From Squalus acanthias (lineage: Eukaryota), in contig CM059449.1 of NCBI GenBank assembly GCA_030390025.1, forward strand, positions 2,418,001 to 2,482,000: a DNA stretch of 64,000 bases, written 5' to 3'. Within the stretch, counting starts at the first letter, position 1, and every line of letters starts with the position of its first letter. Below the pieces are notes generated by a model that saw nothing but the letters and a program-made list of their open reading frames with translations, made no database searches and had not been told where the DNA came from. The translations under genes were made by a program, and so were the position numbers. Below are positions 14,691 to 61,113 of the stretch, in pieces.

Positions 14691-14734
14691 TAAACTGCCA
14701 TCGATGTCAGTTTAACTCTTTTCCCCCCTGCAAT

Positions 14735-25108: not shown

Positions 25109-25665
25109 CTACAAAGATACTTTGTCACCTCTAATGATTTGGAGAGGACAGATTTTCAGTGGTTCTGAGTTTTTGCCTCCTTGGTTCAATCCAGGACTGA
25201 ACAAAGGATACAGATCCCCACTGATAACAGTGCCTGTGTGGAGAAGAGACTGACTTTCAGGATTGTAAAATGAGAGTGTTTTTTCCTCACAGTCCAGGTA
25301 AACTCCAATCTTCTCTGGGATCTGTCTCGGGCTCAGACTGCGGAGGATTACACTTGAGCTGACAGCTTTGTACTCCTTCTCATCTTTCCGCAGCACAGCC
25401 CAGTACTCACTGTTGGGGGAAGCGGTAGTTGTGTTGTTCTCATCGACGGACTTCGTGGCAATGCCTATATCCCAGGCAGTCTTCACCCCCACCTCCACCT
25501 CCCAGTAATGTTTGCCTGATGCAAATCTGTCAGAACCCAGAACGCGTGGATAATGCTCAAACTTTTCCTCGGTGTCATGAGGCGTCTCTCGGTGGGTCAC
25601 GCTCCTCTTGTCCTCGGACACGTTTAACTCAGTGGGCGCTGTGCTCGAATCCATGGTTACTTTAG
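25109..25665 (-). CDS. Gene B B30.2/PRYSPRY terminal exon
   Basis: [10 protein letters not shown]...VSEDKRSV...[16 protein letters not shown]...IGVYLD...LYPLFSPG; acceptor tcatttag. Confidence 0.92.
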
Positions 25666-28600
25666 CTAAATGAAAGATTACATTTTATTGGCAGATTGAT
25701 TCCATGAGGTGAATTCTCACTTACCGCCGCGCGGAGAAGAGGCCGTAGCGGATTGACCGCTGGTTTTACACATTTCAAAAAGTTACAGCCTCTTCAATCT
25801 TCTTCCTTTCCAACCCCCCCACCCCCCCGCAGTGACACTCCCCTTGTGCCGGGGTCGGTCACCTGGCTGCTCAGCGGCCGGCTCCTGCTGCCCGAATTTA
25901 ATGGCTGGGCAGCCGTTTCTTGCCAACATCCTGTCTCTTTTGGTCGGGAGTTCGACAAGGGGCCTGCTCAGGAGACACGGCCATTAAAATCGGCCGAGCC
26001 TGCGTGCTGCCACACGGGCACACCGCTCACTTTGCCAGGAGTGAAATTCCCCCCCAATCTGCAGCAACATCCAAATCAAATGGAAGATTGCCGATGTGCA
26101 ACATTTCTTGTGAAATGGTAAACCCATTCTTTTCACACATCACAAATACTGCACAGAGGAAATTCTCATTTGTTCATGGTGTCGCAAAACAATATGACTG
26201 AATATCTTCACTAATAATGGCCGATTGTATTCAGACTGATTAAAATACTAATATCCAACTTCACAGCGTGCCCAATCTTTAAACATCTTCATCTCGCACT
26301 GTGCACAGCCCCTTCCCTCCCTATTTCCCACTCACCTCAGCAAGCTCTAAGCAGCCAGTTACACTGCAGGTGTGGAGTGTGAGATGGACTGACAGACACA
26401 AGTGAAGCTGTTAGATTCCACTTGATGTGAGACCACCTGTTCACAGGGTCTGCGTTTCTTGTGTCTTGGCATTCCAGTTACAATAGGCAGTTTGCTTCTG
26501 TGTAAAACTGAATCTACTATGTGGAGATACAAACTGCGTAGTCTAGCTTTCTGTCGATGGCTACTTAACCTGATCTCTGGCAAACAATGAAACCATCTCC
26601 AACTATACTGGTTCTTTGGGAGATACTGGGCGAGAGATTCAACCTACTGCCCGGTGTAAAACTGGAATTGGGGACCAGCTGCCAATCCTGGAATCTGCCC
26701 AACTTCCATTAAAATCACTGGAAATGAAATCATGCGGTTTCTATAATTCATAACAAGATAGATGAGTTGACGGCACAAATGGATACAAAAAGCTATGATA
26801 TGATCGCCATTACAGAGACGTGGTTGCAAGCTGATCAGGGCTGGGAACTGAATATTCCAGGGTATTTGACGGAAGGATAGACAGAAAGGAAAGGGAGGTG
26901 GGGTGGCTTTGTTGGTAAAGGATGGGATCAGTGCAGTGGTGAGAAGTGATATTGGCTCAGAAGATCCAGATGTACAATCGGTTTAGGTAGAGATAAAAAA
27001 TAATAAAGGGAAAAGGTCTCTGGTGGGCGTGGTCTACAGGTCCCCGAACAGTAGCAATACTGTTGGACAGTATAAATCAACAAATAATGGAGGCCTGTAA
27101 AAAAGGTACGGTAATAATCATGGGTGATTTTAATCTCCATATTGATTGGACAAATCAAATTAGCCACGGTAGCCTTGAGGAGGAGTTCATCCGGGATGGT
27201 TTCCTAGAACAGTATGTAATGGAACCAACCAGGGAGCAGGCTATCTTGGATCTGGTACTATGTAATGAGACAGAATTAATAAATGATCTCATAGTAAAGG
27301 ATCCTCTAGGAAAGAGTGATCATAGCATAGTTGAATTTCAAATTCAGTTGGAGGGTGAGAAAGTTGTATCTCAAAGTAGTGTCCTGATCTTAAACAAAGG
27401 CAATTACAGTGGCATGAGGGCAGAACTGGCTAAAATGGACTGGAAAAATAAATTAAAGGGTAAGACAGTTGAAATGCAGTGGCGGACATTTAAGCTGATA
27501 TTTTATAACTCTCAACAAAAATATATTCCAGTGAGAAAGAAAGATTTTAAGAGAAGGGAGCACCATCCGTGGCTAGCTAAGGAAGTAAAAGGATAGTATG
27601 AAATTGAAAATGAAGGCATACAATGTTGCCAAGATTGGTGGGAGACCAGAGGATTGGGAAATCTTTAAATACCAGCAAAGGATGACTAAAAAAATAATGG
27701 AGAGATGAATTATGAGAGTAAACTGGCAAGAAACATTAAAACATAGTAAGAGCTTCTACAGGTATATAAAAAGGAAGAGGGTAGCTAAAGTAAACGTTAG
27801 TCCCTTAGAGGATGAGACTGGGGAATTAATAATGGGGAACAGGGAAATGGCAGAGACTCTGAACAAATATTTTGTATCTGTCTTCACGGTAGAAGACACT
27901 AACAACATCCCAATAATGGATAATCAAGGGGCCACAGGGAGGAGGGAACTAAAGGCAATCACTATCAATAAGGAAATAGTACTCGGTAAAATAATGGGAC
28001 AAAAAGATGACAAGTCCCCTATTTACAATCTACATTAATGACTTGGATGAAGGGACCGAGTATAATGTAGCCAAGTTTGCGGATGATACAAAGATGGGTG
28101 GGAAAGCAAGTTGTGCAGAGGACTCAAAGAACCTGCAAAGGGATATAGACAGGCTAAGTGAGTAGGCAAACAGTTGGCAGATGGAGTATCATGTGGAAAA
28201 GCGCGAGGTTATACACTTTGGCAAAAAAAATAAAAAAGCAAATTATTTAAATGGAGAGGGATTACAAAATGCTACTGTTCAGTGGGACCTGGAGGTCCTT
28301 GTGCATGAAACACAAAAAGTTAGCATGCAGGTACAGCAAGTAATCAAAAAGGCAAATGGAATGTTGGCCTTTATTTCAATGGGGTTGGAGTATCAAAGCA
28401 GGGAAGTTCTGCTACAACTGTACAGAGTATTGGTGAGACTACACCTTGAGTACTGCGTACAGTTTTGGTCTCTTTATTTAAAGGATATACTTGCATTGGA
28501 GGCAGTTCAGAGACGATTCACTAGGTTAATTCCAGAGATGAGGGGTTTGCCTCATGAGGAAAGGTTGAGCAGGTTGGGCCTATACTCATTGGAATTTAGA

Positions 28601-31600: not shown

Positions 31601-34600
31601 GAGGTGTTTAAAATCATGAAGTGTTTAGAGTAAATAAAGAGAAACTTTCCAATGGCTGAAGGGTCGCTAACCAGAAGGCACAGATTTAAGGTGATTGGCA
31701 AAGGAACCAGAGGCAACATGAGGAAAAACTTTTTCATGCAACGAGTGGTTTGTATTTGGAGTGCACTGCCTGATAGGGTGGTGGATACAGATTCAATAGT
31801 AGCCTTCAAAAGGGAATTGGATAAAAATTTGAAGGGGAAGAAACTGCAGGGATATGGGAAAAGAGCGGGGATTGGGATTAACTGGATTGCTCTTCGAAAG
31901 AGCTGGCGCAGACTCGATGGGCCGAGTGGCCTCCTTCTGTGTTGTACTATTCTGTGATTCCACGATAGTTTCCTGGGTTACCCCTTTCCCCTTTCTTGTA
32001 CTTACAAACAAATCCTTTATAATCCACACTTTATCTTCACTGGTGGAATAATGTTTAACCCACTTTCAGAGCTGCCTTTCCTCTCCACACATCACTGTTT
32101 TGTAACACAAGTCCGTTTCTTTCAGAGGTGCTGTTCACGCATTAGTCAATAAAGATAACTGGCAGTTTCTGAACATTAACATCACACTGGTTAGTGATCA
32201 AAAGATTAATGAGTGGATTTCTTACCTGCAGAGTTTGTAATCCTTTTCCATTCTAGAAATGTAAAATCAAATGGTTATTTTCTGATCTGTTATAAACACC
32301 ACGGTCAATCATATTAATTGCACAGTTTTGGGTCATCAGTTCATTAGAATGAGAAATCTGTAAACCACTACTTACTGATGCTCTGACTGTTGACTTAATA
32401 TCCTTTTTAAATTTACATCTTGTATTTAGAGATCAAGGGCAGAATGTGTCACTTTTGACAAGAACTCAATCTTATTACAATTTTTAACTTAACTGTCGTC
32501 AATGTGAACAGGATAAACTGTGCAGAGAAATAATCTTGCAACAGGAGTAAAACAGGAAACTGGGGGGTGGGGTGTCTGAAGCACAAGCACTATTGGCAAA
32601 AGAGATGGTGAGGAAGTGGTAACAGGAAGTTACTGTTGCAAGAGCTAATTATATGTAGAGAGATAATAGGGTGGAGACGATTAAAAATGAACAAAACAAC
32701 AGAATATGTTTGGCAAATTGAAATGTGCATAATGGGGTTGCACAGAATGAAGAGAAGTGTAAACATTTATCACAATCACTAGAGTCAATGATTAATTAAA
32801 TAACATGCCTAATTCCTTATTGAAATGTCCTTTCCCCAGCTGAAATGTAAAAATGTCTAACTATGTAAAAAATCTTACCTGATATTTTAATTTGTGTCTT
32901 CAGCCCTACAAAAAAGACAGAATTTAGAATTACATGTCAAGTGAATAATATTTACTGGCAGTATTTGTTTACCAATATGGTATATTCTTCTGTGTGGAGA
33001 CTGGAGTCTCTCCATTTCTTGGTCCCTCGATTAATATTATCTGATACAGTCAAAGTTTGTGCAGTTCATATATTTTATGAGTGGTGTAAAGTGTATTTTC
33101 AGGCATGGATACTGGCCATATGCTTTATCAAGTGATGGGTGATGTATTCAAAGAGAAAAGGACAATGCATTTTATCAGAGAATTTTCTTGGTTCCGTTAC
33201 TGCATTAAAAAAAAATTGAGAAACCTGTGTGATGGATCAAAGCGCAATAGTGTGGGACACCAGGAAGGCAGAAACAGTAGAAGAAAATCAGGAAAAAATG
33301 CTTAAGGGACACCATGCTGGGGTTTTCAATCCTGGGAGATTCTGGTTAAAAAAAAGTATTACAGAAGTGAGGAGGTCCTGGGGAAAAATGAGATAATGAG
33401 ACCGTGCAATGAGTCTTGATTTACAAAGATGCAGGACGAGAAGGAATGGAGGAGACATGGGAGTTTCACCAGAGTTCAGTGAGACCAAGATATCAACAGA
33501 TGAAGAAGGACCAGGGGTGGAACCATCGAAGGTAATAGGCAGTCACTTACACTGGACATGAAGAATTGAAAGAAATGGGAATTTATTAATGAAAGCTGGT
33601 CGTGAAGCAGTGATCCAGCCATTGCACTGAGAGGAACAGAGGTGTGTGCGCTAAGGATATATGATGCAAGAGAAGTTGATCAATGTAGAGTGAAATAATC
33701 GGTAAGGAATGGATATGGTTGGATGATGTTTGGAGGAGTCATTGACGAGGAGAAGAGAGAGTGAGAGAGGGACTGGAGCCTTGAGGCACCCCTGAGTTAC
33801 TGGAGAGAGTCAAAGGTGAGTCTTCAACCACAGCATAGGTAGAGGAATTTGAGGGGAAACTACACAAGTGTTAACATAGGTGATGGGAGACCACATACTG
33901 CTGGTTTGTCCAGAAGTGCCTGGTGTTGGAACTGGTGAATGGTTTTGGAGATGTCTATAGTTTTGGAGATGTCTGCGGCAATAACAAATGAATCGTCAAA
34001 GCATTCAGGAACAGGAATGCAGAGGTGTTTAACAAGACTAGGTCATAAATAGAAGAATCATTCCAAAAACCACAGCGCAATCACAGATCAGACCAGGACT
34101 TACAAGGAGATCAAGGATTGAAGAGTTAATGGCAGCTTCTATAACTTTAGAAAGCTCTGATGCGAGGACAATATGTTGGTAGTTGTAAAATGGATATGGT
34201 AGCCTGGTGGTTATGGTACTGGACGAGCAACCCAGAGATCAGACTTCAAATCCCAGACGGCAAATTGTGAAATTAGGGAATTTGTGGGCTGGCACCAGAA
34301 AAAGGACCATGAGATCTGTTACACTGTTGTAAAAGTCTAACTGCTTCACTGATGTCCTTCAGCAAAGGGAAAGCTGCTGTTGTTACCGTACATGTGACTC
34401 CAGTCCCACACTATGTGGTTGGCTCTCAATACCTTCAGGGCAACTAAGGATGGGCTCACACCAATGAGAGAACAGTGCTCAGAACAGCCCTGTTCAAAGC
34501 TCCAGGACCACAAAGTTCAAACAGGTCAAAGCAGAAAATTACACAAGGACAAATGAGAATGACTTGTCTGAACATGGTGCGCTGAATTAGCAGGGCTGGG

Positions 34601-37600
34601 GGTGTGGGGCATAGGCTGGAATTTGGTCCCCTAAAAATCTCGAGTCTAATATTAACTGCTGTTCCCATCGTTACACCCCTTACAGACTGAGATTACATTT
34701 TTAAAATTGTACACACAGTTTGATACATTATATCCTCATCAGTAAATCCTAGCACACTCTGTATTAAATCTCAACTATTTATATTGCACCATAAAGAACT
34801 TGGATGTTCAATGTCGAGCAGTTACATGTTCTTACCTTGCAACAACTTCCTCTTCTTCAAGAACAAAATGATAATTGCCACAATGGTGATCAAGGTAATG
34901 AGAAAGATGATGATGAATGCAATTTGCCAGCCCGACAAACTTAGTTCCTTGGGGAACAGTTCACCTGCAAATTAACGCACCGCTGTGTGTAAATATCAAG
35001 GCAACACAGAAAATGTAAGACAGTTGCATTCGGGTTTGTTGCCTACTATTTAACAGGAGATAAGGTAACATTTAAGGTTCATTGACTCATTTTTAGATTG
35101 TACTTGCAGTTTGATACATTATATCCACATCAGTAAATCCTAGCACACTCTGTATTAAATCTCAACTATTTATATTGTACCATAAAGAACTTGGATGTTC
35201 AATGCCGAGGTACCAACGACATAGGTAGGACAAAGAAAGAGGTTCTGCTGAGGGAGTATGAGCAGCTAGGGGCTAAATTGAAAAGGTAATAATCTCTGGA
35301 TTACTACCTAAGCCATGTGCATATTGGTATAGAGTAAATAAGATCAGAGAGCTGAACGAGTGGCTCAAAGATTGGTGTGGGAGAAATGGGTTTTGATTCT
35401 TAGGGCACTGGCACCAGTACTGGAGTAGGATGGAGTTGTTCCGTCGGGACAGGCTTCACTTGAACCAGGTTGGGACCAGTGTCCTGGTGAATTGAATAAC
35501 TAGGGCTGTAGATAAGCTAAATCTAAAGTGGGGGGTTGGGGGGAGGGATCCGCTGAGCGGAAATTAAAAAAGTCAAAGAAAAATGAGAAGGCTAAAGTGC
35601 AGGGTTGCGATAGGGGTAATGATAAACAGAGTGTGACAGGAAGGGACAGAGCAAATACACAAGAGTGCATCAGAAAGAGGGGTCAGAGTAGGGAAAAATG
35701 GTAAAAAGACAAAATTAAAAGCTCTATATCTGAACGCACGCAGCATTCATAACAAGATAGATGAGCTGACAGCACAAATAGAAATAAATGGGTATGATCT
35801 GATAGCCATTACAGAGATGTGGTTGCAAGGTGAACAAGGCTGGGAACTGAATATTCAGGGGTATTTACCATTTCGTAAGATAGGCAGAAAGGAAAAGGAG
35901 GTGGTGTAGCTCTGCTAATCAGTAGTGAGAAATGATATTGGCTTAGAAGATCAAGACGTAGAATCAGTTTGGGTGGAGATAAGAAATAATAAGGGTAAGA
36001 AGTCACTGGTGCGAGTGGTCTACAGGCCCCCAAACAGTAGCTACACTGTAGGGCAGAGTATAAATCAAGAAATAATAGAGGCTTGTAAGAAAGATACGGC
36101 TATAATCATGGGAAATTTTAATCTTCATCTTGATTGGACAAAGCAAATTGGCAACGGTAGACTTGAGGAAGAGTTCTTAGAGTGTATGCAGGATGGATTC
36201 TTGGAACAATATGTTGTGCAACCAACCAGGGAGCAGACTATTTTAGATCTGGTAATGTGTAACGAGGCTGGATTAATTAATGATCTCGAAGTGAATGATC
36301 CTCTTGGGAAGAGTGATCATAGCATGGTAGAATTTCAAATTCAGTTTGAGGATGAGAAAGCTAGGTCTCAAACTAGTGTCCTGAACTTAAATAAAGGTAA
36401 TTACAAAGGTATGAAGGCAGACTTGGTTAAAGTGGACTGGGAAAATAAATTATAGGGTAAGACTGTAGAAAAGCATTGACAAATATTTAAGGAGATATTT
36501 CATAACTCTGAGCAAAGATATATTCCAGTGAGAAAGAAAGACTCTAAGAGAAGGATGAACCATCCGTGGCTAACTAAGGAAGTATAGGATGGTATCAAAT
36601 CGAAAACAAAGGCATACAATGTTGTGAAGAATAGTGGAAGGCCAGAGGATTGGGAAATTTTTAAAAACCAGTAAAGGACGACTAAAAAAATGATAGAGAA
36701 GATAGCTTATGAGAATAAGCTAGCAAGAAATATAAAAACAGACAGAAAGAGCTTCTGCAGGTATATAAAAAGAGAGTCTGGGGAATTAATAATGGGAAAC
36801 AGGGAAATGGCAGAGACTTTGAACAAATATTTTGTATCGTTCTTCACGGTAGAAGACACTAAAAGTATCCCAATAATGGATAATCAAGGGGCTGGTGGGG
36901 TGGTAAACTTAAAACAATCACTATCACGAGAGAAAAAGTACGAGGCAAACTAATGGGACTAAAGGTGAACAAGTCTCCTGGGCCCAATGGCCTGCATCCT
37001 AGAGTCTTAAAAGAGGTGGCTGCAGAGATAGTGGATGCATTGGTTCTAATCTACCAAAATTCCCTCGATTCTGGAGAGGTCCCAGCGGACTGGAAAACCG
37101 CAAATGTAACGCCCCTATTTAAGAAAGGAGGGAGACAGAAAGCAGGCAATTATAGGTCAGTTAGCCTAACATCTGTCATTGGGAAAATGCTGGAGTCCAT
37201 CATTAAGGAAGTGGTAGCAGGACATTTCGAAAATCATAATATAGTCAAGCAGAGTCAGCATGGTTTTATGAAAGGGAAATCATGTTTGACAAATTTGCTG
37301 GAGTTCTTTGAGGATGTAATGAGCAGGGCGGATAAAGGGGAACCAGTAGATGTCGTGTATTTGGATTTCCAGAAGGCATTCGATAAGGTGCCACATAAAA
37401 GGTTATTGCACAAGATAAGAGCTCATGGGGTTGGGGTAATATATTAGCATGGATAGAGGATTGGCTAACTAACAGAAAGTCGGGATAAATGGGTCATTTT
37501 CAGGTTGGCAAACTAACTAGTGGGGTGCCGCAGGGATCAGTGCTGGGGCCTCAACTATTTACAATCTATATTAATGACTTGGATAAAGGGACCGAATGTA

Positions 37601-40141: not shown

Positions 40142-40637
40142 AACTCTGCAAATTCAAAATAAAATGCAATTATTTGAGTGAATTGTCTCAGTACATTCTT
40201 CACAAGCTGGATAAAATCTGACTGGGAAACCGACTGAAGATTATATGGGATTGCTTGGATGTAAATGTCATTCTCAGGTGTCCATACTACAACCCTCAAG
40301 GCTGCCCAGGGACTACCACAAGGCCCACCAGCCCTGGTTCTGGTCCACAATTTCTCAGACATGAACTCACTGCTTGTGCTGAGCAAAAGGCTGCCGTGTG
40401 AAAATGCGGAAATGATTGAAGATCCGGAATAACAGAAAACGCTGCAAAAACTCAGCAGGCCAGGCCCTGTCGCTTCCAATGAACCCGCTTCCAAAGTTAA
40501 ATTAAAAAAGCGGGCGCTTCAGTAAAAGAAGCCCCGTCCCACCGGACTCAGGACAACTTGATGTGGAAAGGTTCCTGGGGCTGGGCTCACTTCAGCAGAC
40601 GGAGCGGCCCCCAAATGTACCGCAGCATCAAATGTGG

Positions 40638-40860
40638 GGAAAGGCCGGGGGCGGGAGCCGAGCTCCGGACACCTCCCGGGGGAAAAGCCGGGAGCGGGGG
40701 CGGGAGCCGAGCTCCGGACACCTCCCGGGGGAAAGGGCGGGGGCGGGGGCGGGGGCCGAGCTCCGGACACCTCCCGGGGGAAAGGGCGGGGGCGGGGGCC
40801 GAGCTCCGGACACCTCCCGGGGGAAAGGGCGGGGGCGGGAGCCGAGCTCCGGACACCTAC
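40638..40860. repeat. GC-rich ~43-49 bp minisatellite, ~5 copies
   Basis: gggcggg(a/g)gccgagctccggacacctcccgggggaaa. Confidence 0.92.
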
Positions 40861-41160
40861 CGGGTAAGATGTCCCAGGACGGGTGACAATCGGCGCTTTG
40901 CTCCAATTCAGGCCGCACCCACCGGAAGGGCAGGAAAGTGAAAGTGCTTTTGAGCAGCGAGTTTGAGGCGGGGCGTTTTGTTCGGCGGAGAACGGCGGGA
41001 AATTTGGGCGCAGACAGGTTGGTGCCATTGCATTGAGGGGGTGGAATGGGGGGAGAATGGGAGAGGGAGTGCGGCCCCCGGCTGGGCTCCTTCCTCACAC
41101 CCAGGAGCCGGACTGGAGCAGCTCCGGGCCCAGCCGTACCCTCCCCTACCCCGGGTTACA
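40861..41160 (-). promoter_or_regulatory. CpG-rich promoter and probable non-coding exon 1 of gene B, with IRF element and ETS site
   Basis: GGAAAGTGAAAGTG at 40933-40946, CCGGAAG at 40922, GC boxes; minus-strand donor CCG|GTAGGT at 40860. Confidence 0.6.
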
Positions 41161-43710: not shown

Positions 43711-43894
43711 GAGAATAACATGGACAGAAATTCTTGGGAACAAAAGGCTAAAAAACTGTAAATGCTGGAAATCTGAAACATCTGGAAACACTCACCAGGT
43801 TAGGCAACGTCTGTGATGTGTGCTTTTCCTCATTGTCCTGCAGTGAAATATGGTACAAATCTACAGAAAACACAGGGTGCTGTTTAATTCAAGA

Positions 43895-44322: not shown

Positions 44323-45261
44323 CTTGGGCTTCAGCTGGCCCCAGACAAAAATAGCTCGGTTGGACTGAACAGGTAGAAGACTTGAAATATTTCCCTCTGT
44401 CACACAGAAAATTACAAACCAGAATCCAGGTCGGCAGTGCCATTCAGCTCACTGAGCCTGCTCCACCATTTTGTTAGTAATAATATCTTTTTAATCTCAA
44501 TATTCCTCTGTTTCTCCATATCTTGCCATACTCACTAGGTAAGTAACTATCTGCCTTTTAAACACCTCACCTAATTCTGTGGTTCTGTCCTTCTGGAACA
44601 CTATATTCCTCATTCTAGCATCCTTTGTGTGAATTTTTCCCCCATGGACTTGTTTTTAATTGTTTATTTCCAATTGTAAGATTGCCCCTTGTTTTAGAAT
44701 CCCCAGCAGTCAGAAACTCGTCCCTTGTCTACCCTGTCATTCCCTTCATTATTTAAAACACGTTGATCATATCATCCTCTAACTGTATCTCCAGAGAATA
44801 GATCCTGAATTCACCCAGTCTCTTATGATGACTCAGTCCCTTCGTCCCACAGCTCACCCTGGTCAATTACCACTGTACTTTCTCCAAGACAGTGTATCTT
44901 TCCTATTGTTCCTGTAGTCATTCATTTATTACTCTGATCAGTGAGCAGCACTGATTACTGGATAGATCCCCACACATTTCTGCAACACACTGAAATAAAA
45001 CATCAGAGTCACGCTGTTATTTTAATGAAAACTTACTCGCCGGCCAGACAGCTTTGAATGAAGAGAGTTCTTCAGCCTGTTCTCTTTATCTTTCTGGAAT
45101 ACCAGCCCTGCCTTCTTCCTGTTGCAGCATCCAGCTGTTTCTTCCTTTCACATCAAGATATGAGAATTATTGTCAGTGATATGAAAAGGGTGTTAATAAT
45201 GCAGCATGAAAACAATGGGTGACTGATCCAGGTAACTCTGATCTAATTTACAGGGTCCACA

Positions 45262-45319
45262 ATGGAGAATCGCTTACTGGCGTCATTCCTATTGTTACAG
45301 ATTCAGATTACAGCAGCAG
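45262..45319 (+). CDS. Gene A signal-peptide exon (MENRLLASFLLLQIQITAA)
   Basis: Acceptor tttacag at 45253, ATG 45262, donor GTAAGA at 45320; hydrophobic leader. Confidence 0.85.
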
Positions 45320-48300: not shown

Positions 48301-51300
48301 CATTCATCCTTCCGCAATGCATCACTTCACACTTCTCTGTTTTAAAGTGCATCTGCCATGTGTCTGCCCATCTCACCAGTCTGTCGATGTCCTCCTGAAG
48401 TCTTCTTCTATCCTTCTCACTAGATTTCCGAGATTTGTGTCCTCTCCAAACTTTGAAATGATGCCCTTTATATCCAAGTCCAGGTCATTAATATATTTCA
48501 AAAAGAGCAGTGGTCCCAACCCCGACCCCTGGGGCCACCACTTGCCTCCAGTCTCTAAAGCAACCGTTCACCACTACTGTCTGCTTTCCATTCCTTGGCC
48601 AATTTCATATCCATACAGCCCCTTCCCCTTTAATCCCATGTGCTTCAATTTTGCTATGAAGTCTAACATGTACTTTATCAAACGCCTTTTGAAATTCCAT
48701 ATACACAGTATCAACTGCACTACCCTCATCAACCCTCTCCATTATTTCATCAAAGAACTCAATCAAGTTAGTCAGATCCATTATTCAAGAAGGGTAGTAG
48801 GGATAAACCAGGGAATTACAGGCCAGTGAGCCTAACATCAGTGGTAGGGAAATTATTGGAAAAAATTCTGAGGGACAGAATTAGTCTGCACTTGGAGAGT
48901 AAAGGATTAATCAAGGATAGTCAGCATGGCTTAGTCAGGGGGAGATCATGTCTGACCAATTTGATTGAATTTTTCGAGGGAGTGACTAGGTGTGTGGATG
49001 AGGGTAGTGCAGTTGATGTGGTCTACATGGACTTCAGTAAGGCTTTTGACAAAGTCCCGCATGGGAGACTGGTCAAGAAGGTAAGAGCCCATGGGATCCA
49101 GGGCAACTTGGCACATTGGATCCAAAATTGGCTTAGTGGCAGGAGGCAGAGGGTGATGGTCGAAGATTGTTTTTGTGACTGGAAGCCTGTGTCCAGTGGT
49201 GTACCGCAGGGATCGGTGCTGGGTGCCTTGCTGTTTGTAGTGTACATTAATGATTTAGATATGAATGTAGGAGGTATGATCAGTAAGTTCGCAGATGACA
49301 CGAAAATTGGTGGGGTGGTAAATAGCGAGGAGGGAAGCCTCAGGCTACAGGACGATATAGACGGGTTGGTCAGATGGGCAGAACAGTGGCAAATGGAATT
49401 TAACCCTGAAAAGTGTGAGGTGATGCATTTTGGGAGGACTAACAAGGCAAGGGAATACACAATGAATGGTAGGACCCGAGGAAGGACAGAGGATCAGACG
49501 GACCTTGGTGTGCATGTACATAGATCCCTGAAGGCAGCAGGACAGCTAGATAAGGTGGTTAAAAAGGCATATGGGATACTTGCCTTCATTAGCCGAGGCA
49601 TAGAATATAAGAGCAGGGAGGTTATAATGGAGCTGTACAAAATGCTAGTTAGGCCAAAGCTGGAATACTGTGTGCAGTTCTGGTCGCCACACTATAGGAG
49701 GGATATGATTGCATTGGAGAGGGCGCAGAGGAGATTCACCAGGATGTTACCTGGGCTGCAGCGCTTCAGCTATGAAGAGAGACTGGACAGGCTGGGGTTG
49801 TTTTCCTTAGAGCAGAGAAGGCTGAGAGGGGACCTGATTGAGGTGTACAAAATTATGAGGGGCATAGATCAGGTAGATAGAAAGGAACTTTTCCCCTTAG
49901 TAGAGGGGTCAATAACCAGGGGGCATAGTTTCAAGGTAAGGGGCAGGAGGTTTAGAGGGGATTTGAGGAAAAACTTTTTCACCCAGAGGGTGGTTGGAAG
50001 CTGGAACTCACTGCCTGAAAGGGCGGTAGAGGCAGGAACCCTCACAACATTCAAGAAGCATTTAGATGAGCACTTGAAACGCCATAGCATACAAGGCTAC
50101 GGACCAAGTGCTGGAAAATGGGATTAGAATAGACAGGGCTTGATGGCCGGCGCGGACACGATGGGCCGAAGGGCCTCTTTCTGTGCTGTATAACTCTATG
50201 ACTCTATGAGATGCGATTTGCCTTTAACAAATCTGTGCCGGCTCTCCTTTATTGACCCATATTTTTCCAAGTGCCAAGTAATTTTGTCCCGAATTATTGT
50301 GTCTCAAAGTTTCCCCACCACCGACGTTAGGCTGACTGGCCTGTAATTGCCAGGTTTTTCCTCTCCCCTTTTTTGAATAGGGTGTAACATCTGCAACCCT
50401 GCAGTCCTCTGGCACCACTCCCATATCTAAGGAGGATTGGAAGATTGTGGCCAGAGCCTCCGCAATTTCCACCCTTCCTTCCCTCAGCAACTTAGGGTGC
50501 ATCCCACCCGGACCAGGTGACTTTTGTACTTTGATCGCTGACAACCATTTATGAACTCTTAATTTATTTTTATCCTATCCAATATCGCTATTGCCTCCTC
50601 CTTTACTGCGACATTGGCAGCATCCTCCTCTCTAGTGAAGACAGATGCAAGGTACTCATTTAATAGCTCAGCCATGCCCTCTGCCTCCACAGGAAGATCT
50701 CCTTTTTGGTCCCTAATTGGCCCCACCCTTCTCTTGACTACCCTTTTTATAAAAGACTTCAGTGCTCCCTTTTCTGTTATCTGCTAATCTATTCTCATAC
50801 ACCCTCTTTGCCCCTTTTATTTCCTTTTTCAGTTCTCCTCTGCACTTTCTGTATTCGGCTTGGTTCCCTACTGTATTAAGAACCTGACATTTATCACAAG
50901 CCTCCTGTTACTGTTTCAGTTTAACCTCAATGTCTTTAGTCATCCAGGAAGCTGTAGCTTTGGATGCCCTTACGTTCGCCCTGATAAGAATGTGTCCAGT
51001 CTGTACCTGAACTAGCTCCTCCTTGAAGGCCTCCCACTGCTCATTTACTGTTTTACCTGCCAATCATTGTCTCCAATCCACCTTGGCCAGACCCCTTTTC
51101 AGCTGACTGAAATGAACCCTCTTCCAGTTGGGTATCTTCACTTTTGATTGTTCCTTGTCTCTTTCCCATTCTCAACCTAATCATATTGTTTCCATTACTG
51201 TAATTGGAACTGAATTGGTTCCAGTCACACACATCAGAATCTGAAATATAAAAGTTTGTTAATACGCACAGATTAATATTTCTGCCAGTGAGCATGAATT

Positions 51301-54300
51301 TGTAGTTTATTGTGAAAGTCAATGGATTATTCCACTGAAATAAACATTATTTTCTCTGGTAAACCTTAACATTCTGTTCAGCGAAGAGAGGAGTGAATCT
51401 GTCTGGATATGGTAGCCTGGTGTTTATGTACTGGTCTGGTAACCGGAGGTTGAGAGTTCAAATCCCCCCCCCCCCCCCCGCCGCCCCCCTCTCCATGACA
51501 GTTATTGAAACTGAATTCAATAAATCTATTAATTTGTGGGCCAGGACCAGAAAAAAAGTGATCACCACTGACATTTACCCCTCATTTCCTGGCACCGTGT
51601 GTTGTTGTAAAAGCAAATAGTCTTCAGGGAAGAGAATCTGTCACTCAGACCTGCACTGGCCTAGATGTGGCTTCAGTCACAACACAGTGACTCTTAACAT
51701 CCTCAGCAAAACTGAAGATTTCCATTAGACAGTAGCTTCAATCTTAGTGATAATTCACTGAGAACTTCATATCTGAACAGTATAGAGGCAACTCTGCCAC
51801 AGAATACCAAAATGTGATGGTATTTTACGCTAGCTTCAGTCTGGTTATTTTCGAGCATGTGTACGTCCCACTGCAATTATCACAATTTAGATCCAGTACC
51901 ACATCTGTACCAACTGATGGCAGAGGTCAAGACCGTATTTATCCAATAGATGTATTGGTAGAATAAAATAATATGCAGCTTATTTTCCATATTTGTAGTG
52001 TCTGGGAGTCAGCCTGAGATCCATGTTGAAGGATTCCATGAGCGAGGGGGGAGTCTTGTGTGTAAATCCAGTGGATGGTACCCGGCCCCTGAGGTATCCT
52101 GGAGATACACAGATGGACCGGACATTTCTGCACCGTCTAAAACCCTGAATACTGCAGAGTCCAGCGGAGCTGTCACTATCGAAAGTCACATCAACATCAC
52201 AAAGGATCTTGGGGAAAGCTACTCCTGTCTGATAAGGAACAGATTGCTCTTCGAGGAAAGAGAAGGAATTATTGAGATAGCAGGTCAGTGACAATCCCTC
52301 CTGAACAGAGGGTTGATGACATATTTATGAAATATTCACATGAACACATTCATCAGTCTGATTGATTTATTGTTTGACATGTCAATGGTATCTTAGTTCT
52401 ACAACAAATAAGGTTGTTTGTTTATTTACAGATGAGTTTTTCCCTCAGGAGATGGGAGTTTCAGGATGGAGTGTGGCTTTCTGGAAACTCACGGTTCTCA
52501 CTGCTATTCTAATAATTGCAGCTCTCCTCTACTGGTTAGAACGATGGAACGGTGTTTTCTATACATGGAAAGAATTGAAAGGTAACATCTTACAAAAAAT
52601 GTTTAAAATCTTGCATTGTGTAAACACTGAAATATACAGAGAATAATTTTTTATAATTGTCCAGAATAAGATGATCCATAATCTCGCAGTAACAGTGATT
52701 TAATATCACTGCGTTCCATTTCACTAAAGTACGTCACAGTACAAACCATCACTTACTGATCCGGGATTGGGAAAGCCTGCATTCAGCTGCAGAACTCTGA
52801 ATTGCTGTTCCATATTCCAGTGGAGTTTCACAGTCTCTCTGTGCTGGATACCTCCAGCTCTACCTGCTTCACGCCACCTTAACACACTGGAAAAAATCCT
52901 TACATGTGAACTTACAACAGGTTACATTTTAGATGCACGTTTTCCATCATTTTCAAAAACTGATGCTTGCTGCACTAGAAATGCTACAAACAGAAACAGC
53001 CCTGAAATTGCTGTCAGTGACATTAGGAGGAATGGTTAACCGTGTCGTATGTAATTCCTTCGTTTGCTAGTTCAATTAAATTTAAGCATATTTATTTAAT
53101 ACTACTCAGTCTCCCGTGGCCATTCCACACGTGAAGTCAAAACCAAAAGAAATCTTCAGGTGGAGCGGGATATGAGCGTGTCGGGTGCGGGGGGTGGGTG
53201 CTGGAAGGGGGTCGTGTAGTAAGTATTCAAACCAGGGCTTGTAGTTGAATCATAGAATGGTTACAGCACAGAAGGAGGCCATTCGGCCCGTCAAGCCTGT
53301 GCTGGCTCTCCTCAAGATCACTTCAGCTAGTCCCACTCCCTCACCCTTTCCCCGTAGCCCTGCAAATTCTTTTCCTTCTGGTACTTATCCAACTCCCTTT
53401 TGAAAGCCACGATTGAATCTGCCTCCACCACCCTTTCAGGCAGTGCATTCTAGATCATAATCACTCGCTGCGCAAAAAAGGTATTTCCTCATGTCGCCTT
53501 TGGTTCTTTTGCAAATCACCTTAAAACTGTGCCCTCTGGTTCTCGACCCTTCCGCCAATGGGAACAGTTTCTCCCTATCTACTCTGTCTAGACCCCTCAT
53601 GATTTTGAACTCCTCCATCAAATCTCCTCTCAACCTTCTCTGCTCTAAGGAGAACAACCCCAGCTTCTCTAGTCTATCCACGTAACTGAAGTCCCTCATC
53701 CCTGGAATCATTCTCGTAAATCTTTTCTGCACCCTCACTAAGGCCTTCACTGAGGAGGTGCTGAAAGTTCGCTTTGGCAATATTAAGGGCCATCTTGCAG
53801 GCAGCCTCATCACCAATGCCTGCGCTGTCAGTCATCTGCAAGAGGAGACAAGTTAGAGACTGTTCTAACCCTCTACACAGCAGTTTAAATTAGTTACTGT
53901 GGAAGTTCACAGGATAGAGAGCTGGATGTTGCTTCACTCCCAGTCTCCAGCCCCACTTCGAAGGGGAAATGGTTTATCCATCACGTTTTATACTATCCCA
54001 CCCCAGCAAAGGCTATGGGCCCAGAAAACGTTCCGGCTGTCCTTCTGAGGACTTGTGCTCCGGAACTAGCTGCGCCTCTAGCCAAGCTGGTCCAGTACAG
54101 CTACAACACTGGCATCTGTCTGAAAATGTGGAAAACTGCCCAGGTATGTTCTGTCCACAAAAAGCAGGACAAATCCAATCCGGCCAATTACCTCCCCATC
54201 AGTCTACTCTCAATCAATGTAAGGTGTCATCAATAGTGCTATCAAGCGGCACTTACTCACCAATAATCTGCTCAGCGATGCCCAGTTTTCTGTTACGCCA

Positions 54301-57300
54301 GGACCACTCGGCTCCAGACCACATTACAGCCTTGGTCCAAACATGGACAAAATAGCTGAATTCCAGAGCTAAGGTGAGAGTGACTGCCCTTGACATCAAG
54401 GCAGCATTTGACCGAGTGTGGCTTCAAGGAGCCTGAGTAAAACTGAAGTCAATGGGTATCGGGGAAAACTCTCCACTGGCTGGAGTCATACCTCGCACAA
54501 AGGAAGATGGTTGTGGTTGTTGGAGGCCGATCATCACAGCCCCAGGACATCACTGCAGGAGTTCCTCAGGGCAGTGTCCTCGGCCCATCCATCTTCAGCT
54601 GCTTCATCAATGACCTTCTCTCCATCATAAGGTCAGAAGTGGGAATGTTTGCTGATGATTGCACAGTGTTCAGTTCTATTCGCAACTCCTCAGATAATGA
54701 AGCAGTCCATGCCCGCATGCAGCAACTCCTGGACCACATTCAGGCTTGGGCTGATAAGAGGCAGGTAACATTTGTGGCACACAATGGCCAGGCAATGACT
54801 ATCTCTAACAAGAGGCAGTCTAACCACCGCCCCTTGACATTCAACGGCATTACCATCGCCGAATCTCCCACCATCAACATCCTGGGGGTCTCACCATTGA
54901 CCAGAAACTTAACTGGACCAGCCACTTAAATACTGTAGCTGCAAGAGCAGGTCAGAGGCTGGGGATTCTGCAACAAGTGTCTCACGTACTGACTCCCCAA
55001 AGCCTTTCCACCATCTGCAAGGCACAAGTCAGAAGTGTAATGGAATATGCTCCACTTGCTTGGATGAGTGCAGCTCCAACAACACTCAGAAGCTCAACAC
55101 CATCCAGGACAAAGCAGCCCGCTTGATTGGCACCCCATCCATCACCTTAAACAGTCACTCCCTACAGCACTGGCGTACCGTGGCTGCAGTGTGTAGCATC
55201 TACATGTTGCACTACAGCAACTCGCCAAGGCTTCTTCGGCAGCACCTCCCAAACCCTCGATCTCTTCCACCTAGAAGGACAAGGGCAGCAGGTGCATGGG
55301 AACACCATCACCTCCAAGTTACACACCATCCTGACTTGGAAATATATCGCCGTTCCTTCATCGTCGCTGGGTCAAAATCCTGGAACTCCCTCCCTAACAG
55401 CACTGTGGGAGTACCTTCACCACACAGACTGCGGTGGTTCAAGAAGGCGGCTCACCACCACCTTCTGAATGAATAAAAAAACATCTTGAGGCTCCATTGG
55501 TTCAGTTTCGCTCATTGATTGCACTGATTCATGGATGATTTTAGGTTCAGGATTATGATAATTAGGTTTGCGCGGCCATTTGGGCGGAATTCCACCTCGA
55601 CCATTTTGGGTTCAATTTCCTGATTGCGAACATGCAGAAGCCCTTGAGTTTTCACTTAAACTTTATCTGGGCCAACACCACCCAAACCAGATTGAACTGG
55701 TTATTCATTTTGTTTCTCTCGGTGGGATCATACTGAGCATAATATGGCTGATGCTGTTGCTTACATAACGGTCACTGCACTTCAAACAGTAATTGATCGG
55801 ATGTGGTGCGCTTTTGGGACATCCTGAGAATGTGATCAGTCGCTATACAACACCAACAACAACTTGTATTTACACAGCGCCTCTAACATAGTAAAATGCC
55901 CCAAGGTGCTTCACAGGAGTGTTATCAGACAAAATGTGAGACTGAGGCACATGAGATATTGGGACAGGTAACCAAAAGCTTAGTCAAAGAGGTTTTAAGT
56001 AGCGTCTTCAAGGAGAAGAGAGAGGTAGAGAGGTATAGGGAGGGAATTCCAGAGCTAAGGGCCCAGGCAGCTGAAGGCACGGCCGCCAATGGTGGAGTGA
56101 TTAAAATCGGGGCTGCGAAGGAGGCCAGAATTGGAGGAATGTAGAGATCTCGGAGGGTTGTAGTGCTGGAGGAGGTTACAGGGGTGGGGGGGGGAGGGGG
56201 GCTGCGGGGTGAGGCCATGGAAGGATTTGAAGACAAGGATGTGAATTTTAAAATTGAGGTGTTGCCAGGACGGGAGCCAATGTAGGTCAGCGAGCGCAGG
56301 GGTGATGGGTGAACGGGACTTGGTGCGAGTTAGGACACGGGCAGCAGAGTTTTGGATGAGCTAAAGTTTACAGAGGGTGGGAGATGGAAGGCCGGCCAGG
56401 AGTGTGTTGGAATAGTCAAGTCTGGAGGTAACAAAGGCATGGATTTAGGATTTCAGCAGCCTATGAGCTGAGGCAGGGGCGGAGAAGGGCGATGTGATCA
56501 CTCGCTATATAAAGACAAGTCTTCCTTTGTCCACTGTCTGAATTTGATTCTGCTCTTTAACTCATTAATGAAAATTTTTCCAAGTCCCATGAAAATCACT
56601 CAAACCAGTCAGGAAACTGCAGGTTGTTTCTAATGAAAATTTATTCTCTTCCAGATCTACAGGAGCAGCTAATACTCTCAGGTAAGAAGAGTTGTGAGAA
56701 AATCTCAGCTGTGGTTCCACGGCCCCTCCGTGCAGTGTGTAATTATTGAAAGGGATGATGCCCAGTATCAGTGTAGCTGGATTGTATTTTGTCGATAAGT
56801 ATTGTGATGAATTCTGGTGATATTTATCTGCTCTGTGTGATGTCTCCGCTGAACAGCAGCTGTGCTGTAAGTTTTCCCGAAGGTTTTTACACAGGGTCAC
56901 ACACCACGAGCTGCTCCCTCCTGATCCACAATTACTGTACGACCTCGTTCCCACAGAAAGGTCTTACTGACGGAGATAAGCATCTTCTCACAGTGAGTGG
57001 GTCCGGCTCCTTTAAGGTTCCTGTCTAGAAGTGGACAGTCCCGAGTGTGGTGGATCCTGTGTGATGTGCAGCTCTCAATGAGATATGTCAGTGGTGTCCG
57101 GGTCACTGTAAATAAATGACAATCATTGTGTCACACGGATCTGTGATCCATTTATGCTTGGTATTTACACTTTATTATGTGACGGCGCCATTGATGTTAT
57201 TTTTATCTGTTTTTCAGAGTGGAAGGGGATTACGATGTTTCCAGGTGAGAGACTTCAGATCCTGGGGCTGTGCCGGTTTCTATCTTGTGAAGTTCAGGTT

Positions 57301-60300
57301 CTGGTCTGTGCGGAGTGTTTAACATCCGTGGGGGAGCCCTGTCAATAATTAAAACATCAGCATTCCCAGAAGTCCTGTCTGAAACACCGTCTGTCTATAA
57401 ATACTGCAGTGAGTGAGAGGGGACTGTGCCACAGGGTCAGGGTGGTAACTCATTCCCGACAGAGCTGTTGTCTGTTTCTCCCTGTAACAGCACATGCCAC
57501 TGATATTAATATAAAGATTAATCTCTTTCTTAATTCTAAAAATGAGAAGTTGCACAACACCAGGTTATAGTCCAACAGATTGTTGGACTATAACCTGGTG
57601 TTGTGCGACTTCTCATTTTTGTCCACCCCAGTCCAACGCCGGCATCTCCTCATCTTAATTCTAAGGCATAGCCTGAGGTGTCTCAATCCAGCTGGGGGTC
57701 GGGCCCGGCAGATTCGGTGAACATACGAACATACGAATTAGGAGCAGGAGTCAGCCACTCAGCCCCTCGAGCCTGCTCCGCCATTCAATAAGATCATGGC
57801 TGATCTGATTACTCCACATTCCCGCCTACACCCGATAACTTTTCACCCCCTTGCTTACCAAGAATCTATCGACCTCTGCCTTAAAAATATTCAAAGACTC
57901 TGCTTCCACCGCCCTCTGAGGAAGAGAGTTCCAAAGACTCACAACCCTCACAGAATCCCCACAGTGCAGATAGAGGCCATTTCGGCCCATCGAGCCTGCA
58001 CCGACACATATCCCACCCTATCCCCGTAACCCCACGTATTTAATCCCCCCCTAACACTAACCCTCTGAGAAATTTCTCCTCATCTCTGCCTTAAATGGGC
58101 GACCCCTTATTTTTAAACAGTGACCCCTAGTTCTAGATTCTCCCACAAGAGGAAACATCCTCTCCACATCCACCCTGTCAAGACCCCTCAGGATCTTGTA
58201 TATTTCAATCAAGTCACCTCTTACTCTTCTAAACTCCAGCAGATACAAGCCTAGCCTGTCCAACCTTTCCTCAGAAGACAACCCGCCCATTCCAGGTATT
58301 AGTCGAGTAAACCTTCTCTGAACTGCTTCCAACGCATTTACATCCTTCCTTAAATAAGGAGACCAATACTGTACACAGTACTCCAGATGTGGTCTCACCA
58401 ATGCCCTGTATAATTGAAGCATAACCTCCCTACTTTTGTATTCAATTCCCCTCGCAATAAACGATAACATTCTATTAGATTTCCTAATTACTTGCTGTAC
58501 CTGCATACTAACCTATTGCGATTCATGCACTAGGACACCCAGATCCCTCTGCATCTCAGAGCTCTGTAATCTCTCACCTTTTAGATAATGCTTTTTTATT
58601 CTTCCTGCCAAAATGGACAATTTTACATTTTCCCACATTATACTCCATTTGCCAGATCTTTGCCCACTCACTTATTCTATCTATATCCCTTTGTAGCCTC
58701 CTTATGTCCTCTTCACAATTTACTTTCCTACCTATCTTTGTGTCATCAGCAAATTTAGCAACCATACCTTTGGTCCCTTCATCCAAGTCATTTATATACA
58801 TTGTAAAAAGTTGAGGCTCCAGCACTGGTTCCTGTGGCACACCACTCATTACATCTTGCCAACCAGAAAATGACCCATTTATGCCTACTCTCTGTTTCCT
58901 GTCAGCTAGCCAATCTTCTATCCATGCCAATATGTTACCCCCTACACCATGAGCTTTTATTTTCCACAATAACCTTTGATGTGGCACCTTATCAAATACC
59001 TTTTGGAAATCTAAGTACAGTACATCCACCGGTCCCCCTTTATCCATAGCACATGTTACTTCCTCAAAGAACTCCAATAAATTGGTTAAACATGATTTCT
59101 CTTTCACAAAACCATGTTGACTCTGCCTGATTACCTTGAACTTTTCTAAGTGCCCTGCTATAACGTCTATAATAATAGCTTCTAACATCTTCCCTTTGAC
59201 AGATGTTAAACTAACTGGACTGAAGTTTCCTGCTTTCTGTCCCCTCCCCCCCCCCCCCGCCACTTCCACCCCCCGCCTCCTTTTTTGAATAAAGGAGTTG
59301 CATTCGCTATTTTCCAATCTAATGGAACCTTCTCCGAATCTAGGGAATTTTGGAAAATTAAAACCAACGCATCAACTATCTCATGAGCCATTTCTTTTAA
59401 GACCCTAGAATGAAGTCCATTAGGAACCGGGGACTTGTCAGCCCGCAGCGCCAACAATTTGCTCAGTACCACTTCCCTGGTGATTGTAATTTTCTTGAGT
59501 TCCTCCCTCCCTTCCATTTCCTGATTTACAGCTATTTCTGGGATGTTACTTGCACCCTCTATAGTGAAGACCGATGCAAAATACCTGTTGAATTCAACTG
59601 CCATCTCCATATTTTCCATTATTAATTCCCTAGACTCACTTTCTATAGGACCAATGCTCACTTTGTTAACTCTTTTCTTTTTTAAATATCTATAGAAACT
59701 CTTACTATCTGTTTTTATATTTCTAGCTAGCTTTCTCTCGTACTCTAATTTTTCTCTCCTTATTAATCTTTTAGTCATTCTTTGCTGTTTTATATATTCT
59801 GTCCAATCTTCTGACCTGCCACCCATCTTTGCGCAATTATATGCTTTTTCTTTAAGTTTGATACTATCTTTAACTTTTTTAGTTAACTACGGATGGTGGG
59901 TCCTCCCCTTGGAATTTTTCTTTCTCGTTGGAATGTATCTATTCTGTGTATTCTGAAATATCCCCTTAAATGTCTGCCACTGCATCTCTATTGACCTATC
60001 CCTGCTCCAGGCCTGGGCTGTTGGGCTTGGCCTGTCCCTGGTGTGTGTGTATTTTACTTGTCCCTTTCCTACAATAATTGATTCTCAATCTGTTTGGAAG
60101 GGTGAGGGTCTGCTCCTGCTCGCGGGCTGGGGTTCAGGGTCAAAGCGGCTGAATGGGCCGATCCCCAGACAGGAGAGAGACTGAGAGAAATGGTCTGCAA
60201 GTGATTATTGGACTGGGTCCGGTCCGTGTGTGGCCTAGAGGTACACTGAGCCGGTCCGTACCGGGATTGCATCGATGTGAATGTGGAGTTGGGTCTGTGT

Positions 60301-61113
60301 GTGACCTGCAGGTGCACTGATCCGGTCCGTACCGGGATTGCACCGGGTGTGAATGTGGAGTTCGGTCTATTTGTGACCTGCGGGTACACTGAGCTGGTCT
60401 GTACCGGGATTGCACCGGGTGTGAATGTGGAGTTGGGTCTGTGTGTGACCTGCAGGTGCACTGATCCGGTCCGTACCGGGATTGCACCAGGTGTGAATGT
60501 GGGTCTGCGAGCTGGGATCAGGCCGCTCCCGGTTTTTGCTCCTGATCGGTTTTATATTTTTATTGCAGAACCTGTGACTCTGGATCCGGTCACAGCGAAT
60601 ACCTGGCTCATCGTGTCTGAGAACCGGACCAGTGTGAGACTCAGAGACAAACGGCAGCCGCTCCCTGACACCCCGGAGAGGTTTGATTTCTGGCCCTGTG
60701 TCCTGGGATCGGAGGGATTCACATCAGGGAAACACTACTGGGAGGTGGGGGTGGGGAACAAGACTCAGTGGTTTGTGGGAGTGGCCCGAGAGTCTGCCGG
60801 GAGGAAAGGGAGAATCAGACTGAGCCCTGAGAGCGGATACTGGGTTGTGGAGCTGAGACCTGGAAGTGTCTATGCTGCCGGCACCTCCCCCTCACGGACC
60901 CCCCTCACCCCGTGTGTGGATCCCCGGAAGATCGGGGTGTACCTGGACTGTGAGAGCAGACAGGTGTCATTTTACAATGCGGACAACATGTCCCATCTCC
61001 ACACATTCACCCACACTTTCACTGAGAGAATCTTTCCCTTCTTCAATCCGGGATGGAATGACGGTGGGAAAAACTCCGCCCCCCTGACAATCTGCAGGGT
61101 TAAAGGTCACTAA
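45262..61113 (+). CDS. Butyrophilin-like gene A, complete (leader-IgV-IgC-TM-coil-B30.2/PRYSPRY), 477 aa, 7 coding exons
   Basis: Exons 45262-45319, 45411-45752, 51999-52283, 52432-52581, 56655-56681, 57218-57244, 60569-61113. All introns GT-AG and phase 1; total 1434 nt, open to TAA. Canonical BTN exon architecture; orthology not assignable by eye. Confidence 0.9.
45411..45752 (+). CDS. Gene A IgV exon
   Basis: DFEVTG...VTLNC...LEW...GRTELF...GNISLRLSNVRISDEGKYRC; 342 nt, phase 1-1. Confidence 0.93.
47500..51180 (-). mobile_element. Old CR1 LINE interrupted by a younger CR1
   Basis: Decayed RT pieces at 47.5-48.78 kb and 50.21-51.18 kb are contiguous across the insert. Confidence 0.85.
48779..50208 (+). 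mobile_element. Young 5'-truncated CR1 with uninterrupted RT ORF
   Basis: Open frame from PLFKKG to the stop at 50127; (actctatg)n tail. Confidence 0.95.
51999..52283 (+). CDS. Gene A IgC exon (B7/BTN-type C domain)
   Basis: GSQPEIHVEG...LVCKSSGWYPAPEVSW...YSCLIRN; 285 nt, AG/GT bounded. Confidence 0.92.
52432..52581 (+). CDS. Gene A transmembrane exon
   Basis: DEFFPQEMGVSGWSVAFWKLTVLTAILIIAALLYWLERW...; 150 nt. Confidence 0.9.
56655..56681 (+). CDS. Gene A 27-nt juxtamembrane microexon (DLQEQLILS)
   Basis: tctcttccag|27 nt|gtaaga; typical BTN coiled-coil microexon. Confidence 0.8.
57218..57244 (+). CDS. Gene A 27-nt microexon (EWKGITMFP)
   Basis: gtttttcag|27 nt|gtgaga; matches the BTN/TRIM pre-B30.2 'EWK/R' microexon. 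Confidence 0.82.
60569..61113 (+). CDS. Gene A B30.2/PRYSPRY terminal exon
   Basis: [45 protein letters not shown] motifs; AATAAA at 61186. Confidence 0.95.

Follow-up and report, generated by a model that had tools for sequence, protein, structure and literature searches.

A 64,000-nucleotide stretch of Squalus acanthias DNA (GenBank assembly GCA_030390025.1, contig CM059449.1, positions 2,418,001 to 2,482,000 of the forward strand; hereafter the window, whose first letter is position 1) carries two intact genes of butyrophilin (BTN) type arranged head-to-head. Gene A has the full butyrophilin layout, whereas its neighbor, gene B, is without an IgV domain. Both genes have counterparts of unchanged layout in two distantly related sharks, Heterodontus francisci and Pristiophorus japonicus, and in Squalus they are probably transcribed from one region beside the start codon of B. 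We propose that the two proteins may work as a heterodimer with a single IgV. The window itself is vertebrate DNA with many long interspersed nuclear element (LINE) fragments, and its closest protein matches are from sharks.

Both genes were rebuilt from splice sites. Gene A, on the + strand, encodes 477 amino acids in seven coding exons with the order signal peptide, IgV, IgC, transmembrane (TM) segment and B30.2: the ATG and signal-peptide exon (45262-45319), the IgV exon (45411-45752), the IgC exon (51999-52283), a 150-nt TM exon (52432-52581), two 27-nt microexons (56655-56681 and 57218-57244), and a last exon with B30.2 and the stop codon (60569-61113), with AATAAA at 61186. Gene B, on the - strand, encodes 360 amino acids in six coding exons with the order signal peptide, IgC, TM and B30.2: the ATG and signal-peptide exon (40081-40141), a single IgC exon of butyrophilin type (38834-39115), a 129-nt TM exon (34836-34964) encoding an uncharged TM and then a basic juxtamembrane stretch, two 27-nt microexons (32879-32905 and 32226-32252, both bounded by AG/GT, in phase 1 and matching nine residues in both shark orthologues), and a last exon with B30.2 (PRY-SPRY) and the stop codon (25109-25665). 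Both frames are open through to the stop, and all 11 introns are GT-AG and in phase 1. The start codons, at 40141 (-) and 45262 (+), are 5,121 bp apart. An earlier note on this DNA, made from its letters alone, had described two intact, divergent butyrophilin-like genes sharing a TM, two 27-nt microexons and B30.2, and the splice models, open frames and Pfam matches bear this out.

Gene A matches the V-set family PF07686 (E 3.4e-13) and the BTN IgC family PF22705 (E 1.1e-20), both above cut-off, as well as PRY and SPRY; it thus has the IgV followed by a BTN-type IgC, the single TM and the cytoplasmic PRY-SPRY of a butyrophilin. It is a further member of an already known shark type, as V-C-TM-B30.2 BTNs have been reported in four cartilaginous fish, with shark BTNs so far consisting of BLAST hits alone (PMC12841164), and BTNs have been dated to jawed vertebrates (PMC11788884, PMC13262535). 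Gene B matches PF22705 (E 2.6e-9), PRY and SPRY, with no match to V-set: it has the BTN-type IgC, TM and B30.2 and lacks the N-terminal IgV, and so is BTN-derived, though no canonical BTN. The assignment of both genes to the butyrophilin family in the earlier note holds, on Pfam domains and shark orthologues; what it described as very divergent amounts to proteins identical at 137/342 positions (40%; IgC 32%, B30.2 49%), which is comparable to the 28-39% identity between Heterodontus A and other vertebrate BTNs.

When all six frames of the 64 kb were searched with a V-domain profile, the IgV exon of A, which is the window's only V exon, was the single real match (E 6e-48), and the sole other match scored negative; tblastn with six homologues likewise found no hidden V exon for B within the window. 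Because the profile finds A's exon alone, and because the signal-to-IgC intron of B is just 965 bp long and holds neither a V exon nor a remnant of one, we conclude that B is without a V exon. RefSeq/UniRef models of the two other sharks have the same junctions, with the signal peptide of B leading directly onto IgC, so the V-less structure is not due to chance, and the contrast of A with V and C and B with C only, which the earlier note had drawn, is kept in both species.

The B orthologues are H. francisci XP_067865452.1 (347 aa) and a P. japonicus model (366 aa), both signal-IgC-TM-B30.2 and without V, and the A orthologues, H. francisci XP_067865250.1 and a P. japonicus model, have the domain layout of A. 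Identity per exon is 67-90% for B (IgC 74-79%, B30.2 71-77%, with 18/20 signal-peptide residues identical in both orthologues) and 69-88% for A. Heterodontus and Pristiophorus represent the two main shark lineages, which split more than 200 million years ago. Since one-to-one orthologues with the same layout exist in two sharks, B is an old, constrained V-less gene, as conserved per exon as A, and not debris. Trees were built from 49 IgC and from 48 B30.2 domains, leaving out nine rows that were redundant or fragmentary. In them the three sharks form one supported clade for each gene: starred for both A (100/99) and B (100/100) with IgC, and, with B30.2, starred for B (100/100) and with 97/88 for A. 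Chondrichthyan BTNs separate from bony-vertebrate ones in a tree without mammalian sequences (91/94, unstarred).

This conservation bears on whether B might be a functionless truncated relic, or a misassembled gene that lost its V exon. The locus is indeed rearranged: a near-identical copy of part of A, 12.5 kb long, lies in the window, as does an inverted copy (93%) of a portion of the last intron of B. However, the frame of B is open and its splicing canonical in the window, the signal-to-IgC junction and the signal residues recur in two other sharks, conservation equals that of A, and the Ig domain of B retains both Ig cysteines and the core Trp; we regard a relic as very improbable.

The 5’ ends of the two genes connect them more closely than their start codons do. 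A splice-site scan found acceptor-like AG sites just upstream of both ATG exons (8 nt before the ATG in A), which indicates untranslated first exons. In an automatic gene model, isoform X1 of P. japonicus A, a 33-residue leader precedes the conserved Met, and residues 8-24 of this leader match the + strand of the window at 40330-40380. The matched DNA shares the strand of A, precedes A, and lies 189-240 bp from the ATG of B. This placement requires 8 base changes over 51 nt, the lowest number among 127,900 placements, with 15 for the runner-up (z 7.3), and 0/100 shuffled leaders reached the true score (maximum 6.06); for the last nine residues of the leader, the best matches in the window are at chance level. 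We take 40330-40380 (+) as a candidate untranslated first exon of A. For B, the splice-site scan suggests a 5’ untranslated intron at 40146-40371 (-), with an acceptor 4 nt before the ATG and a donor at 40371 that falls within the candidate A exon. As six consecutive unchanged codons of the leader match span this donor, the first exons of A and B may overlap. A candidate shared promoter region lies at 40250-41000 (GC ≤0.67, CpG observed/expected ≤0.84, partly tandem repeat); a promoter-motif scan of the intergenic region, run without a control, gave nothing interpretable.

From the leader homology we infer a bidirectional promoter shared by A and B. It is quite probable, from the sequence, that the first exon of A starts beside the ATG of B and that both genes are therefore transcribed from one region, with transcription starts likely within a few hundred bases of each other instead of 5.1 kb. 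Bidirectional head-to-head pairs are defined as having transcription starts less than 1 kb apart on opposite strands (PMC7817982). The spacing of about 5.1 kb given in the earlier note is thus accurate for the start codons but not for the likely transcription starts, and its claim of co-regulation gains indirect backing from a Pristiophorus leader exon homologous to DNA about 190 bp from the ATG of B. Both genes occur in two other sharks, and in H. francisci they lie on a contig of the same length, 74,466,956 bp, which places them on the same chromosome. In Pristiophorus the A-B layout is probably conserved, judging from the leader.

How might a V-less chain function? We propose that the V exon of B disappeared early in the history of sharks, while the IgC, the TM and the juxtamembrane helix that mammalian BTNs use for pairing were kept, a history to which we give an even chance. 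A and B would form a heterodimer through IgC and the membrane helix; A would supply its only ligand-binding IgV; like V-deleted BTN3A, B would depend on its partner to get to the surface, and it would bring a second, different B30.2 into the cell. By analogy with mammalian BTNs, a receptor of this kind, in which only A gives an IgV, seems to us evenly balanced between right and wrong. Mammalian BTN dimers are reported to rely on IgC-IgC contacts and a TM/juxtamembrane coiled coil (10.1101/2024.10.02.616253, PMC11969061), and IgC is required for BTN3A1-3A2 pairing (PMC5798315). V-deleted BTN3A depends on a full-length partner for surface expression, V-deleted 3A1 with 3A2 stimulates T cells, and BTN3A works best with its IgV and the sensing B30.2 placed on different chains (PMC10665462); in BTNL3/8, the T cell receptor (TCR) is bound by the IgV of BTNL3 alone (PMC6868513). 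Set against these precedents, B would have shed precisely what one chain can spare and retained the pairing parts. The AlphaFold model of Heterodontus B (mean pLDDT, the predicted local distance difference test score, of 86) consists of an IgC, one continuous helix and a B30.2, and its top Foldseek matches are BTN3A1/2A1 chains.

B might instead regulate A, or other shark BTNs, by pairing with its partner but retaining it in the endoplasmic reticulum (ER), or by halving the IgV dose, as a gene-encoded decoy and not a co-agonist. V-deleted 3A2 paired with 3A1 is rescued to the surface and stimulation is not raised (PMC10665462), BTN heteromers are controlled by ER retention motifs (PMC5798315), and mammalian BTNL8 has a V-less isoform cluster. 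But the full B30.2 of B, conserved at 71-77%, exceeds what a passive decoy needs, and the C-terminal tails of the three shark B proteins have no common motif, and a regulatory role for B is in our view improbable.

With regard to the membrane region, the earlier note had singled out a charged TM in A. A lysine is indeed present in the Squalus TM, but is Phe in Heterodontus and Ile in Pristiophorus, and the TM of B has no acidic residue to partner a lysine; a charged TM was accordingly rejected as a pairing feature. The spacing between IgC and B30.2 is 70 aa in A and 63 aa in B in all three sharks, a difference of one heptad, and the TM exon of A exceeds that of B by the same length. The juxtamembrane net charge is +8, +9 and +5 over 28 aa in the three B proteins, compared to -2, +3 and +1 over 37 aa in A, or 0.29, 0.32 and 0.18 per residue for B against -0.05 to 0.08 for A, with a maximum of 0.24 in 29 ordinary BTNs. 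A basic juxtamembrane motif is reported to disfavor BTN3A1 homodimers (PMC10665462). We treat the heptad spacing and the juxtamembrane charge as weak hints of pairing.

Several observations weigh against the A-B heterodimer, or against the ligand and generality that might be claimed for it. The head-to-head layout can arise by inverted duplication alone, and an approximately unbiased (AU) test of A and B as sister groups gave p = 0.2, so that the test neither establishes nor dismisses this grouping. The difference in charge is not large, as basic residues are expected after a TM anyway and 3/29 ordinary V-C-B30.2 proteins exceed the 0.18 of Pristiophorus B. Although the 51-nt leader match occurs once in the window, it may belong to a repeat found throughout the genome, and in Pristiophorus it links A alone to this DNA; in H. 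francisci the A and B accessions are 202 apart, and direct adjacency is not established in either species. In addition, A or B orthologues were found in two sharks alone: a search with the IgC exon of B returned 2 proteins among 58 candidates (the H. francisci and P. japonicus B orthologues), the V exon of A returned 4/221 (the same two species and two teleost BTNs), and the Heterodontus B ectodomain returned 2/256 (the query itself and P. japonicus). Weak evidence as it is, this distribution does not point to a universal shark system; in other sharks and rays it may have been lost, diverged or remained unannotated. At the position aligned by eye with His351 of BTN3A1, A has Trp and B has Tyr, and a 2026 paper argues that BTNs have been retained in squamates although these have no gamma-delta T cells (PMC12841164).

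Some of these points fit A and B being neighbors rather than partners, products of an old inverted duplication that act alone or as homodimers, possibly co-transcribed, with the IgC of B serving as its own ligand- or partner-binding surface. A sister relationship of A and B is not rejected, the aligned IgC of B has other residues in place of the GWYP motif seen in other BTNs yet is 74-79% conserved, which fits a separate function, other V-less IgC-TM-B30.2 proteins exist (a 55-member Atlas cluster and a paddlefish protein, see below), and BTN2A1 and BTN3A homodimerise (PMC11969061). On the other hand, an engineered V-less BTN3A fails to traffic without a full-length partner (PMC10665462), the leader match indicates tightly linked 5’ ends, and the basic juxtamembrane helix of B is expected, if weakly, to disfavor homodimers. 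We rate independent neighbors as a possibility, less probable than the A-B heterodimer.

The identity of a ligand for that heterodimer is a separate matter. Sharks possess TCR gamma and delta loci, and a gamma-delta role of the pair is plausible, but the squamate BTNs mean that the link cannot be assumed; that the IgV of A binds a gamma-delta TCR seems doubtful to us. Contact of an IgV CFG face with V-gamma CDR2/HV4 would be open to A, which has the domain, and is closed to B. Unlikely, too, is the most complete version of the idea, an obligate heterodimer from one overlapping bidirectional promoter, its division of labor set in the genes, in which the IgV of A engages a gamma-delta TCR and B contributes only a pairing IgC and a second B30.2 sensor for an intracellular ligand other than a phosphoantigen. 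At five further positions that we take to line the phosphoantigen pocket, about one per shark protein stays basic. His351 is needed for phosphoantigen sensing (PMC10533412, PMC7348870), and neither A nor B has the BTN3A1-type His351 with a basic B30.2 pocket; on these residues, mammalian-type phosphoantigen sensing by A or B appears unlikely. Relative to the earlier note, the pairing idea is now stronger on conservation and promoter linkage and weaker on the charged TM and the gamma-delta link.

The window also contains a partial copy of A, absent from the earlier note, at 2733-15253. It lies on the same strand as A, begins directly after a 50-bp tandem array, and comprises the IgC, TM, both microexons and B30.2 as a 98-99% copy of 51510-63855 (2733-12774 matches 51510-61558 at 99.1%, and the match continues to 15253 at 98%, 12.5 kb in all). 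Its splice sites are intact, and 4 of its 1,034 coding bases are substituted, but the window holds neither a signal exon nor a V exon for it. Either it arose by recent duplication or it is an uncollapsed haplotype, and its near identity means that short-read expression of A can be read at the V-to-C junction alone. An A-like protein, P0043, whose TM and juxtamembrane region are by eye about 90% like Heterodontus A, has a distinct B30.2 and no Ig domains, which suggests partial A duplicates in another shark as well. At the window's edge, 1-1502 is an inverted 93% copy of 29722-28174, part of the last intron of B, with about 345 bp that have no other copy in the window. It may be that a B-like paralogue precedes the window on the + strand and runs into the partial A copy; a chimeric gene is possible.

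Further features lie around and within the genes. At 16437-16700 (-), an Ig-V-like frame ends at a splice donor, with an in-frame stop upstream and no Pfam match; we take it by eye to resemble a CD2/SLAM/CEACAM-type domain, and it is probably a gene remnant. Between the partial A copy and B, 18150-20160 is CpG-dense and holds a GC-rich (0.64) tandem array followed by LINE-like reverse-transcriptase fragments. A 72-bp tandem array sits just upstream of A's B30.2 exon (60221-60502, and 11437-11718 in the copy); its frame is open for more than 100 codons ahead of the acceptor, with no sign of coding. The longest open frame listed, at 48772-50127 (-) in the V-C intron of A, encodes a 451-aa LINE reverse transcriptase, presumably of CR1 type.

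This locus offers a specific, conserved pair with which to ask what gamma-delta T cells recognize in animals other than mammals and how old BTN pairing is, and mammalian work predicts that B needs A for the surface. If B does depend on A, BTN heteromers would be far older than mammals, and a chain could drop its IgV permanently; if it does not, B would still be a V-less BTN that is conserved and wrongly named, with an IgC ligand yet to be identified. Were the obligate gamma-delta heterodimer true, evolution would have produced in the pair what was engineered in the V-deleted BTN3A1/3A2 complex, and cartilaginous fish would have their first defined candidate ligand of a gamma-delta TCR.

In the literature, mostly its non-subscription part, we found neither a V-less BTN gene nor BTN genes paired head-to-head described for sharks, and passages of two further sources (10.1101/2024.09.09.611499, PMC6823204) hold nothing bearing on either. 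V-less layouts do occur elsewhere. A profile search of 1.84 billion representatives yielded, among the best 150 matches, Polyodon spathula XP_041090230.1 (P0139), a signal-IgC-TM-B30.2 protein; its grouping with B was rejected (AU p 6.3e-7), and it is sister (100/99) to the V-bearing P0148, whose V domain is 87 residues apart from IgC, so that the paddlefish lost its V independently of B. Five others scored as IgC-B30.2 without V (P0026, P0044, P0045, P0061 and P0085) are by eye truncated or degenerate models without a signal peptide. In the Atlas, a 55-member IgC and SPRY cluster (score 0.95; taxa given as Chordata) has no V-set member, and a 77-member ‘BTNL8 isoform 3’ cluster has a domain order without IgV; the name of the latter marks it as a splice form from a gene with a V exon, unlike B, which has no V exon at all. 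ERMAP, MOG and chicken BG have one Ig domain, as does B, but theirs is an IgV (V-set in 78% of the Atlas ERMAP cluster). The RefSeq name ‘ERMAP-like’ for the B orthologues is therefore misleading, as the single Ig of B is an IgC (PF22705/C1/C2 sets) and not a V-set. MHC class II A-B pairs, in which oppositely transcribed genes encode the two chains of a heterodimer (PMC8812513), belong to a different family and are a precedent for the layout only.

The closest counterparts are the mammalian BTN/BTNL heteromers (BTN3A1/3A2, BTN2A1, BTNL3/BTNL8, Btnl1/Btnl6). A shares their full IgV-IgC-TM-B30.2 layout, and the best PDB sequence matches of Heterodontus A are BTN3A3/3A1/2A1/BTNL8 (E 7e-80 to 4e-65); B shares the IgC, helix and B30.2 that make up their dimer interfaces. 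The known mammalian pairs carry an IgV on both chains, whereas the shark pair has one on A alone, His351 is absent from A and B, and the juxtamembrane regions of A and B are short (28-37 aa) compared to the BTN3A TM/juxtamembrane coiled coil of about 120 Å (10.1101/2024.10.02.616253). Most similar in design is engineered V-deleted BTN3A1 with BTN3A2/3A3, in which one chain is IgC-TM-B30.2 and its partner gives the IgV, as proposed for B and A; that complex, however, is a laboratory construct of chains with 95%-identical ectodomains (PMC10665462), while B is natural, has an IgC with 32% identity to that of A, and is found in three sharks.

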